64,000 bases of DNA from Candidatus Heimdallarchaeum endolithica (GTDB taxonomy: Archaea > Asgardarchaeota > Heimdallarchaeia > Heimdallarchaeales > Heimdallarchaeaceae). Made by a program: the position numbers and the translations under genes. Where the stretch lies: the NCBI GenBank assembly GCA_021513715.1, contig CP084167.1:2720001-2784000 (forward strand). The letters are read 5' to 3'. Within the stretch, counting starts at the first letter, position 1. Each line of letters begins with the position of its first letter. Shown in pieces: positions 27,031 through 28,194 of the stretch. The notes under the pieces are model-generated. The model was not told where the DNA came from. It did no database searches and was given only the letters and a program-made list of their open reading frames with translations.

Positions 27031-28194
27031 ATGAAATTTTCGATTCAAAAAACATGTTCTGGAATTAATGCAAGACTAGGTATGTTAAGTGTAAAAGGAA
27101 AAAAACTTGCGACTCCTGTTCTATTTCATGGAACGATACTAAATGGAAAACCAGAGCCTTGGATTTACTTTAAAGAAAAACATCCGAATACTAACATTAG
27201 AGGATTAATGATCAATGCTTATGAAATTATAAGTAGTCAAAGACATAAAGAGACAATATTTTCAGAAGGCATACATCAATTTTTAAATTTTAATGGAATT
27301 ATTTTTATGGATTCAGGTGGATTTTTAATTCAAAAAAATCAAAATTTTTCTATAAATGTAGATGATGTTATGGAAGTTTATCGTAAATCATCACCTGACA
27401 TGATAGTTTCATTAGACTATCCTTTATCACCAACTTCATCTGAAGAAGAGAATATTAAAAATTGGAAAAAAACTTTGGAAAATTATGAAATAATGAGAAA
27501 AGAATTTCCTAATATTATGCCAGTAATACATGGATACAGTAAAAAGCAAATTAAGTTAGCTTGTAATGCTATAAGCGCTTATGAACCAAAATTTCTTGGC
27601 ATAGGAAGTTTGGTTCCCTTGATGAGATCGGTTAAAGGAACAAAAGATATAATAAATTTAAACGGCTTTTCGAGAGAAAAAGACTATTCTTCAAAAAAAT
27701 ATGTTGTTGATGCTATTAAATATGTCAGAGATAAATTTCCAGATGGTTTTTTGCATGTGTTTGGTATTGGCAGTGCATCAACAATGCATCTAATGTTCGC
27801 ATTGGGCGTTGATTCAATAGACTCCATGGGTTGGCGCTTAAAAGCTGCTTATGGTGCTGTTCAGATACCTTACACTGCAGACAGATTTTTATCATCGTTA
27901 GGTGGTAAAAGAAAGAATAGGCCTATTTTCAATGATGAAGAGAAAAGAATTTTTAATAATTGTAAATGTGGAATTCATGAAGATTATAATTATGAACACA
28001 TTGATGCAAAATTTGAACCAAAAGCGATTCATAATGCTTATGTGTTTCTCCAAGAAAATCTAAAAGCCATTAATGAGATAAAAAATGATAAATATTATTC
28101 ATTTGTTGAGCAAAGGTTAAAAAATACTGTATATTTTAATTTGTTTAAATATTCTCTTAAGAAGCGTTACACTCAAACAACGCTTATAGGTTGA
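27031..28194 (+). CDS. Stand-alone guanine transglycosylase (TGT family), DpdA-like by context
   Basis: ARLG...TPV, DSGGF, SLDYP, PVIHG, GIGSLVP, HVFGIG, GVDSIDS and CKC..H...HN. 387 aa with no C-terminal PUA domain. Confidence 0.85.
   Translation: MKFSIQKTCSGINARLGMLSVKGKKLATPVLFHGTILNGKPEPWIYFKEKHPNTNIRGLMINAYEIISSQRHKETIFSEGIHQFLNFNGIIFMDSGGFLIQKNQNFSINVDDVMEVYRKSSPDMIVSLDYPLSPTSSEEENIKNWKKTLENYEIMRKEFPNIMPVIHGYSKKQIKLACNAISAYEPKFLGIGSLVPLMRSVKGTKDIINLNGFSREKDYSSKKYVVDAIKYVRDKFPDGFLHVFGIGSASTMHLMFALGVDSIDSMGWRLKAAYGAVQIPYTADRFLSSLGGKRKNRPIFNDEEKRIFNNCKCGIHEDYNYEHIDAKFEPKAIHNAYVFLQENLKAINEIKNDKYYSFVEQRLKNTVYFNLFKYSLKKRYTQTTLIG

Follow-up and report, generated by a model that had tools for sequence, protein, structure and literature searches.

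A stand-alone guanine transglycosylase of Candidatus Heimdallarchaeum endolithica as a candidate DpdB-independent inserter of preQ0 into DNA

Besides bacteria, where they depend on Dpd systems, phages and a small number of archaeal viruses are documented to carry 7-deazaguanine bases in their DNA; to our knowledge, a cellular archaeal system of this kind has not been shown so far. Here, we describe a compact candidate in the closed genome of a member of the genus Heimdallarchaeum: a single enzyme of 387 amino acids (aa), predicted to need no DpdB, that has the fold of the tRNA-guanine transglycosylases (TGTs). Its gene lies in a restriction-type defence island, within a stretch of 64,000 nucleotides (nt) from Candidatus Heimdallarchaeum endolithica (assembly GCA_021513715.1, contig CP084167.1, positions 2,720,001 to 2,784,000 of the forward strand), hereafter the window. 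An original prediction, made from the letters of the window, had taken this gene for a TGT paralogue that may act on DNA.

In the bacterial Dpd systems (DpdA, model NF041059, with DpdB, DpdC and DpdD-K), a TGT-fold enzyme encoded beside helicase and nuclease restriction genes puts preQ0 into host DNA to mark it as self, and the same logic is proposed here for the window gene (Thiaville 2016, Gedara 2023, PMC10164549). The phage enzymes DpdA1 (phage 9g) and DpdA2 (Vibrio phage nt-1) are DNA transglycosylases that are independent of DpdB (Hutinet 2019, PMC6884629, Cui 2023); in E. coli, DpdA2 modifies plasmid DNA with preQ0 unaided, and the nt-1 homologue of ArcS2 turns dPreQ0 into dG+ in DNA (PMC10516641). 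In the DNA of the Sulfolobus virus STSV-2, dCDG makes up 0.04% of G (Cui et al. 2023, PMC10516641), and the DpdA of this virus (STSV2_15), a short TGT-fold protein without tRNA-binding domains, is partnered by ArcS2 (STSV2_16). DpdA sensu lato has been described as the signature family of DNA 7-deazaguanine transglycosylases (PMC10516641). Finally, BREX-related capture (BRC) systems combine HerA/FtsK, GNAT and TGT homologues without DpdB or DpdC and are proposed to mark self DNA in composite defence loci (NAR 2026, PMC12839542).

We consider it reasonably probable that the window protein works on DNA as a guanine transglycosylase, without DpdB, and that the preQ0 it inserts is a self-mark. Its reading frame is uninterrupted, and the translation matches the Pfam TGT family (PF01702) over residues 13–365 (E 3.7e-22, 79.3 bits). 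The AlphaFold model, built on the family alignment (pLDDT 89.8, pTM 0.90), has the TGT fold: residues 1–380 superpose on residues 8–354 of the 577-residue archaeal TGT (arcTGT) chain of P. horikoshii (PDB 1iq8), with a Z score of 38.2 and a root-mean-square deviation (rmsd) of 2.6 Å over 337 aligned residues. Since the model matches only the catalytic domain of 1iq8, and Pfam detects neither a PUA nor a TGT_C2 domain in a protein that stops at residue 387, the C-terminal tRNA-binding domains are absent, just as the missing PUA region of the original prediction implied.

The active site is intact. All three catalytic Asp motifs on which that prediction relied (DSGGF, SLD and DSIDS) are present (Table 1), and in a family alignment of 33 members D94, D129, D261, D264, C311 and C313 are invariant, with H334 nearly so. 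DSGGF aligns with the DSG motif of arcTGT, bacterial TGT (bTGT), DpdA1 and DpdA2; D129, whose assigned role comes from work on bacterial DpdA (bDpdA; PMC10164549), aligns with the LD of arcTGT and the ID of bDpdA; and D264 coincides with the nucleophile of the FDS/FDC motif in arcTGT and bTGT. The CxCxxH/H zinc site was found as well, at C311, C313, H316 and H334. Most relatives have CxCxxC here, the His as third ligand being confined to the window protein's subclade. Position 167, at the edge of the base and a Gln in arcTGT and E. coli Tgt, is an invariant His across the aligned family; STSV2 DpdA, 9g DpdA1 and nt-1 DpdA2 also have His, as does the DpdA of S. Montevideo, at His181 (PMC10164549).

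The window gene is far from being the only TGT gene of its genome, a single contig of 3.33 Mb (C1) that encodes four TGT-fold proteins: TgtA, ArcS, a protein recognised by the DpdA model, and the window protein. The canonical TgtA, whose existence elsewhere in the genome had to be checked, reaches 453.5 bits with the arcTGT model TIGR00432 (cut-off 350); ArcS has DUF5591, TGT_C2 and a weak PUA match; and a preQ0 cluster encodes a QueE-like protein (a weak assignment, 42.9 bits), MptA, DUF366, QueD and the housekeeping QueC, at C1:1.869 Mb. With TgtA, ArcS and the preQ0 pathway all encoded elsewhere, the window gene is a spare paralogue. TgtA was found in every one of 13 related genomes examined, whereas only 6 of 41 yielded the window-type protein; in the same genus, Ca. 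Heimdallarchaeum aukensis (CP084166) has only a 41%-identical copy, at a different position. No candidate for a DpdB partner came to light: there is no ParB-like protein among the 13 open reading frames (ORFs) between 20.6 and 43.5 kb, the ParB_N genes of the genome lie far from the locus (only at C1:866 kb and 26.6 kb), and the DpdB model NF041060 had no match genome-wide, a negative that is unvalidated because the control genomes were silent too. Genome-wide, DUF5591 occurs only in the PUA-bearing tRNA ArcS, and PF03883 (DUF328/DpdC) is absent.

Other genes of this genome deserve mention. The second short TGT paralogue (G000:C1:895816-897117; L003:1336-2637 = L024:817-2118) passes the bacterial DpdA equivalog model with 394.5 bits (cut-off 200) and ends in QTKIENFF, which resembles a PCNA-interaction (PIP) motif; it has no dpdB-K neighbours, and its relatives are widespread in metagenome-assembled genomes (MAGs) of Heimdall, Thor and Loki archaea. 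Three kilobases downstream of it, and 1.85 Mb from the window TGT, lies the sole DUF6884 (DpdC-like) gene of the genome, an ORF of 394 aa (L024:4891-6075, minus strand; C1:~900.6 kb). The genome may thus carry two independent DNA 7-deazaguanine modules. A second copy of QueC (276 aa, with an N-terminal extension) is encoded at window positions 2140-2970 on the minus strand, 24 kb from the TGT gene; it scores 149.6 bits with TIGR00364, against a cut-off of 150.3, and adjoins a DDE transposase (1066-2010, minus strand).

Judged by sequence, the window protein is part of a clade of its own, so far without a name and separate from both the housekeeping arcTGTs and bacterial DpdA. It reaches 98.9 bits with TIGR00432 and 33.2 bits with NF041059 (cut-off 200), both below cut-off, and 30.6 bits with the PADLOC DpdA model. 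A careful maximum-likelihood tree of 56 rows, from which the long-branched phage DpdA1 and DpdA2 were left out, excludes it from the clades of arcTGT (support 99/100) and of bDpdA (100/100) and places it within an eight-row Heimdall-type clade (100/100); the larger group holding this clade includes STSV2_15 and is split from arcTGT, bDpdA and bTGT at 94/97. In a quick tree that included 9g DpdA1 and nt-1 DpdA2, the arcTGT clade, again without the window protein, has a support of 100. The phylogeny that had been called for, with arcTGT, bacterial TGT, DpdA and DpdA2, therefore leaves the window protein outside arcTGT. Sisterhood to DpdA was considered and rejected: the quick tree nested bDpdA and 9g DpdA1 in the family (SH-aLRT 96, joint split from arcTGT), a placement made unreliable by long branches, and the careful tree, without the phage branches, failed to reproduce it, so only a separate clade is claimed.

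A large protein collection holds 274 relatives, among them a 96%-identical copy; nearly all are 340-410 aa long, and their annotation goes no further than 'tRNA-guanine transglycosylase'. With a threshold of E 1e-30, an exhaustive profile search returned 260 representative clusters. The only longer or fused form is one protein of 717 aa, and no informative fusion was found. The hosts are scattered over Asgard archaea, Bathyarchaeia, Thermoproteota, Methanobacteriota, Nitrososphaerota and several bacterial phyla. STSV2 DpdA is the only member of the clade tied to a measured DNA modification. A family-profile scan of IMG/VR viral contigs yielded no relative, which is weak evidence as the scan was limited by two peptide patterns, and in the literature we found no description of the clade or of its Asgard gene architecture, the BRC systems coming closest.

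Two observations on other TGTs stand apart from this. At the Heimdall-type locus L025:10001-12415 (= L005/L006; L numbers denote loci and P numbers proteins of our collection), two TGT paralogues lie in tandem, 66% and 55% identical to the window protein, and the second copy retains all catalytic residues. MAGs of Methanomicrobia and Thermococci carry a PUA-less TGT group of 337 aa (L074:1838-3510, L076, L078, L079, L081), always followed by a protein of ~220 aa with metallophosphoesterase-like motifs; we rejected the idea that these are split arcTGTs, the following gene not being an arcTGT C-terminus.

The comparative context, our principal line of evidence, points to DNA and preQ0 for the family. 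For this comparison, 61 genome loci and 13 metagenome places (9 distinct proteins) were taken and all neighbouring ORFs clustered; counts refer to the 46 loci with usable flanks, with DUF5591 counted within 3 kb and DUF6884 within 8 kb of the TGT gene. DUF5591 is the catalytic core of ArcS. A small DUF5591 protein, 37-42% identical to ArcS2 of STSV1/2/4, occurs in 15 of the 46 loci, usually abutting or overlapping the TGT gene, and a DUF6884 protein with weak similarity to DUF328/YaaA (DpdC family) likewise in 15. One or the other is present in 29/46, and the PF03883/DUF328 gene directly after the TGT gene of L008 (61% identity to the window protein) raises this to 30/46. Because DUF6884 is fused to bona fide DpdA, we argue that it is a DpdC-type partner of DNA transglycosylases: the bacterial DpdA proteins of cyanobacteria, Myxococcota and others (P0165-P0241) are mostly DpdA-DUF6884 fusions of ~690 aa. 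Partners that finish preQ0 make sense for preQ0 in DNA, not in tRNA, and it is in this way that the context speaks for DNA.

HerA is found in 22/46 loci, NurA in 13/46 and a P-loop protein of ~1400 aa, with weak nSTAND5/AAA_22 matches, in 14/46. Together with the TGT, and with DUF5591 or DUF6884 in addition, these form a cassette of four to five genes in at least 13 archaeal and bacterial genomes, in which PADLOC recognises only HerA.

The window protein's own clade comprises seven loci, in which the TGT gene is adjoined by nucX, a gene for a predicted nuclease, or its variant PLD-X in six, by a DNA methyltransferase (MTase) in five and by a helicase operon in five. Across the family, the MTase adjoins the TGT gene in the window, L008, L009, L025, L108, L037, L048 and L052. 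The triad of MTase, nucX and TGT recurs with TGTs from other subclades that are only 31-38% identical, and one-strand runs include nucX-TGT-MTase-MTase in a Heimdall MAG and MTase-DUF6884-TGT in two Promethearchaeota. This recurrence argues that the restriction-modification (R-M)-like pair is no chance insertion between the TGT gene and the helicase operon. TGT, MTase and nucX might act as one system.

The nuclease and MTase neighbours of the original prediction are all there: we find a PD-(D/E)XK nuclease, an N6_N4 MTase and the nuclease-like product of 29255-30406 (nucX). The MTase gene is convergent on the TGT gene, with a gap of 23 nt. NucX has no Pfam match; it consists of an N-terminal region with a PD...EVK motif and a conserved, winged-helix-rich C-terminal domain of ~250 aa. 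That domain is shared with a PD...EVK (PD-(D/E)xK-like) head in the window, L009, L108, L048 and L052, and with a PLD/RE_NgoFVII (PLDc_2) head in L008, L025 and L106; in L037 and the second L048 copy it has no head. Such head-less copies lie directly beside the TGT gene, and the domain might guide the TGT or the MTase. The best fold match of the nucX model, whose N-terminal part is of low confidence, is the type IIS enzyme PaqCI (8em1_A; Z 14.1, 290 residues, rmsd 8.0), by a wide margin: the runners-up, BrxA and winged-helix proteins, do not exceed Z 8.

The five-gene operon downstream encodes, in this order, a 1588-aa DEAD/Helicase_C/MZB helicase, proteins of 308 and 301 aa, a 988-aa P-loop protein and a protein of 225 aa, and its equivalent adjoins the TGT gene in L008, L025, L106 and L009 (where the contig ends and the helicase alone is visible). 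The helicase scores higher with DruE (148 bits) than with DpdJ (95-97 bits, cut-off 800) or DpdF (31). None of the four genes after it matches an NCBIfam Dpd model at E 0.01 or better, and PADLOC gives them marginal matches only (mad8, NDT, CARF-like), for which reason the label 'dpdJ-K-G-H-I' was rejected. The UvrD/nuclease pair upstream of the TGT gene recurs in L008 only and is absent from the other close loci, making its link to the TGT weaker.

Table 1. Features of the locus and of related loci. Unprefixed coordinates are window positions.
Feature	Coordinates	Strand	Remarks
UvrD-type helicase, 752 aa	23659-25917	+	library matches; accessory module
Cas4-like PD-(D/E)XK nuclease, 316 aa	25914-26864	+	overlaps UvrD gene by 4 nt
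TGT-fold guanine transglycosylase, stand-alone (P0001)	27031-28194	+	387 aa; catalytic domain only; candidate DNA preQ0 inserter
DSGGF motif, D94-F98	27310-27324	+	D94, general acid/base Asp
SLD motif, S127-D129	27409-27417	+	D129, base-recognition Asp
H167	27529-27531	+	position of Gln in tRNA TGTs
DSIDS motif, D261-S265	27811-27825	+	D264, nucleophile Asp
CKCGIH zinc site, C311, C313, H316 (nt 27961-27978) and H334 (nt 28030-28032)	27961-28032	+	
N6_N4-type DNA MTase, 294 aa, motif IV SPPY	28218-29102	-	Pfam N6_N4_Mtase 110 bits; PADLOC MTase_II
nucX, predicted type-IIS-like restriction nuclease, 383 aa	29255-30406	-	alignment and fold match
Helicase operon, five overlapping genes	30649-40873	+	Pfam, NCBIfam, PADLOC; candidate restriction or sensing arm
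nucX-domain genes in related loci	L008:8638-9954, L025:8568-9914, L106:8557-9906, L037:9120-9863, L048:11321-12073		
PCNA-interaction-like tails	C-termini of P0008, P0009, L048:9953-11200, L052:10085-11197		
TGT-NurA-HerA cassette loci	L026-L031, L033, L036, L039-L042, L053 (e.g. L028:9974-18698)		

From sequence, model and gene context we infer a DNA substrate, preQ0 as the base, a role as a writer and a link to restriction. The candidate substrate would be double-stranded DNA: D264 would attack C1' of the target deoxyguanosine, guanine would depart, aided by D94, and its place would be taken by free preQ0, supplied by the host through MptA, QueD, QueE and QueC; as with phage DpdA2, a DpdB-type ATPase would be unnecessary. 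The predicted product would be low-density 2'-deoxy-preQ0 in the chromosome. As the locus has no ArcS2-like or DpdC-like gene in cis, the base probably remains preQ0; the archaeosine (dG+) end product that had been suggested for the chromosome is not supported at this locus, as no ArcS2 (DUF5591) gene lies in cis and the one DUF5591 of the genome is that of the tRNA enzyme. The mark could then serve as a self-label, or as a second protective mark, for the adjoining restriction-type genes, namely the type-IIS-like nuclease with the SPPY methylase and the DruE/DpdJ-like five-gene helicase operon. Tentatively, and with rather less confidence than in the enzyme itself, we picture a Heimdall-type Asgard chromosome with a two-mark label, 2'-deoxy-preQ0 plus an m4C/m6A methylation, that is read by a nuclease with a swappable head and by a helicase machine, in a system akin to the STSV-type viral DpdA/ArcS2 pair, which may have arisen from it.

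Several points weigh against a DNA-modifying enzyme at this locus. A tRNA enzyme, arcTGT, provides both the nearest experimental structure and the highest-scoring sequence model, and the DNA role of the cellular clade members is inferred from sequence, model and gene context. The window locus is without a DUF5591 or DUF6884 partner, the source of the strongest argument for preQ0 and DNA in the relatives. Conserved as it is, the pair of MTase and nuclease could simply be a conventional R-M system travelling with the TGT. His167 is no clean discriminator: Asgard bDpdA-like proteins align there with Gln, and the unrelated 337-aa TGT group likewise has His. The deep topology is unstable: it takes the long branches of phage DpdA1 and DpdA2 to bring bDpdA into the family. 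Lastly, PIP-like C-termini are seen in Asgard family members (QTNLAEFF, QSKILQYL, QTNLSNFL and QIRIQKFL), but the tail of the window protein is cut to QTTLIG before the stop codon; nothing PIP-like was found beyond the stop, and the idea of a PIP box was dropped for this protein.

Among other readings, the protein might be a second transglycosylase for tRNA or another RNA, including viral tRNA, that works without PUA, maybe at another position, and that sits in the island by chance or as a regulator. That its best sequence and structure matches are arcTGTs would fit, as would the bacterial and eukaryotic tRNA TGTs, which also lack PUA and match over their full length (TM about 0.7). Yet the genome already has a full tRNA archaeosine set, the gene is patchy among close relatives and the protein falls outside the arcTGT clade, and the family is found consistently among DNA enzymes, with relatives paired with stand-alone ArcS2-like or DpdC-like genes for DNA-borne preQ0; we regard an RNA substrate as unlikely. 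A role opposite to that of a writer is likewise unlikely in our estimate: the protein would strip 7-deazaguanines or guanine from invading virus DNA and so expose modified viruses to the neighbouring nucleases, the outcome being back-exchange to G, covalent trapping or abasic sites. TGT chemistry, a base exchange via a covalent intermediate (PMC10164549), would allow for this, and defence glycosylases against 7-deazaguanine phage DNA exist (bioRxiv 10.1101/2025.10.29.685425). The window locus, moreover, has no preQ0-finishing enzyme, and a type IV GmrSD-like gene adjoins the triad in L108. Against such an eraser, 30 of the 46 relatives pair the TGT with preQ0-maturing enzymes, which fits a writer, and the base pocket and both Asp residues are identical across subclades. 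The known glycosylases, Dag1 and Dag2, were found by similarity to a DNA-glycosylase fold, and the preprint names DpdA as a dPreQ0-inserting transglycosylase, a different kind of enzyme.

A DNA writer could also leave another final base: dG+ via the host ArcS in trans, dADG via the distant DUF6884 protein, or a CDG-type insertion. The 15 relatives with ArcS2-like DUF5591 and the 15 with DpdC-like DUF6884, the DUF6884 gene of the genome itself, the dCDG in STSV-2 DNA (PMC10516641) and the second QueC copy would all be compatible with this. We nevertheless hold it to be quite improbable, given that the only DUF5591 is in the tRNA ArcS, that action of a host ArcS on DNA has been called 'highly unlikely' because its PUA domain is specific for tRNA binding (PMC6884629), that the DUF6884 gene belongs to a locus 1.85 Mb away and that no gene in cis indicates further processing. 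The least probable reading, to our mind very improbable, is that the TGT has no functional tie to the genes around it and shares a mobile defence island with them, perhaps as an orphan or a gene in decay. Defence islands accumulate systems of unrelated kinds; close by there are toxin-antitoxin-like pairs and a TIR-Roc protein, with transposases elsewhere in the window, and the close locus L110 shows no partners in its short contig. But the ORF is intact with every catalytic residue kept, a near-identical copy exists, and adjacency to MTase and nucX holds from 31% to 96% TGT identity, in three TGT subclades and with some one-strand runs.

The wider surroundings of the locus contain two other proteins of note. 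On the minus strand at 20668-23490, a 940-aa protein combines a beta-propeller, a Roc/Ras GTPase and a TIR/SEFIR domain (PADLOC bSEFIR, 142 bits); encoded divergently from the UvrD operon, it probably represents a defence gene of its own. The second, 613 aa long, is encoded directly after the helicase operon (41692-43533, plus strand) and has an N-terminal PARP-type zinc finger that scores 35.3 bits, just below the Pfam cut-off of 39.3. Fingers of this type sense DNA nicks and are uncommon in archaea.

If the proposed DNA role is correct, Archaea would have their first known cellular system for 7-deazaguanine modification of DNA, modification-dependent immunity would gain a new architecture, and self/non-self discrimination based on DNA hypermodification would reach the Asgard archaea. 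It would also define a distinct DpdA subfamily and a modular 'TGT (+ ArcS2 or DpdC-like)' cassette plugged into at least three restriction back-ends: the NurA-HerA-P-loop giant, the type-IIS-like R-M pair and the DruE/DpdJ-like helicase operon. Sequencing and cloning of Asgard DNA would be affected, because modified G resists many restriction enzymes. Independently of this, a clade of about 260 representative clusters carries the label of tRNA-guanine transglycosylase, and such labels can mislead the reconstruction of archaeosine and queuosine pathways.

How, then, does the locus compare with the systems described at the outset? With arcTGT (TIGR00432, 1iq8), its best structural match among the TGT entries that filled the structure-search lists, best sequence match in the PDB (E 2.5e-18) and best-scoring named NCBIfam family, the window protein shares the fold, the catalytic residues, the position of the zinc site and probably preQ0 as substrate base. 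In contrast to arcTGT, with its C1-C3/PUA domains, Gln and core distribution, the window protein has no such domains, a His and an accessory distribution. With bacterial DpdA it has in common the catalytic Asp pair, the base-binding Asp and the His, but it lacks the insertion of 40-60 residues before CxCxxC seen in the bDpdA-type rows (the genome's own copy and two Asgard relatives); a large helical insertion, Ins8, has been described for bacterial DpdA (PMC10164549). Unlike a Dpd locus, that of the window TGT shows no recognisable DpdB or DpdC in cis, the partners being the SPPY MTase and the type-IIS-like nuclease, and no gene of its operon reaches a Dpd model cut-off, the helicase being weakly DpdJ-like.

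Phage DpdA1 and DpdA2 share the His at the Gln position and the DSG motif with the window protein, but they are viral counter-defence enzymes, not cellular self-markers, and both are very distant; DpdA2 of nt-1 can barely be aligned to the family profile (hhalign, E 0.0076), and a tblastn search of 50,697 phage records with the window protein found neither it nor 9g DpdA1. Similarity to BRC systems lies in the many distant relatives encoded directly beside HerA. Among the 13 ORFs around the window TGT, there is no HerA, PglZ, DUF6079, DUF4007 or GNAT protein, and the NurA-HerA-1400-aa cassette of the relatives does not fit the seven-gene BRC list, as compared by description (PMC12839542).

STSV2 DpdA falls into the same tree clade as the window protein, with a low identity of 30% over about 200 residues (tblastn). 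It is shorter, with 291 aa, lacks the CxCxxC/H zinc motif in the alignment, and is viral, protecting against host restriction, whereas the window gene is chromosomal; its ArcS2 partner has counterparts in the DUF5591 proteins of cellular relatives but none at the window locus. The features of DpdA sensu lato, namely the TGT fold, an intact active site and the absence of tRNA-binding domains, are all found in the window protein, while linkage to both preQ0-finishing and restriction-type genes is seen family-wide (30/46), the window locus having restriction-type genes only. Outside arcTGT and bDpdA by membership, the locus would seem to function in the manner of the modification arm of Dpd or of the viral DpdA/ArcS2 pair.

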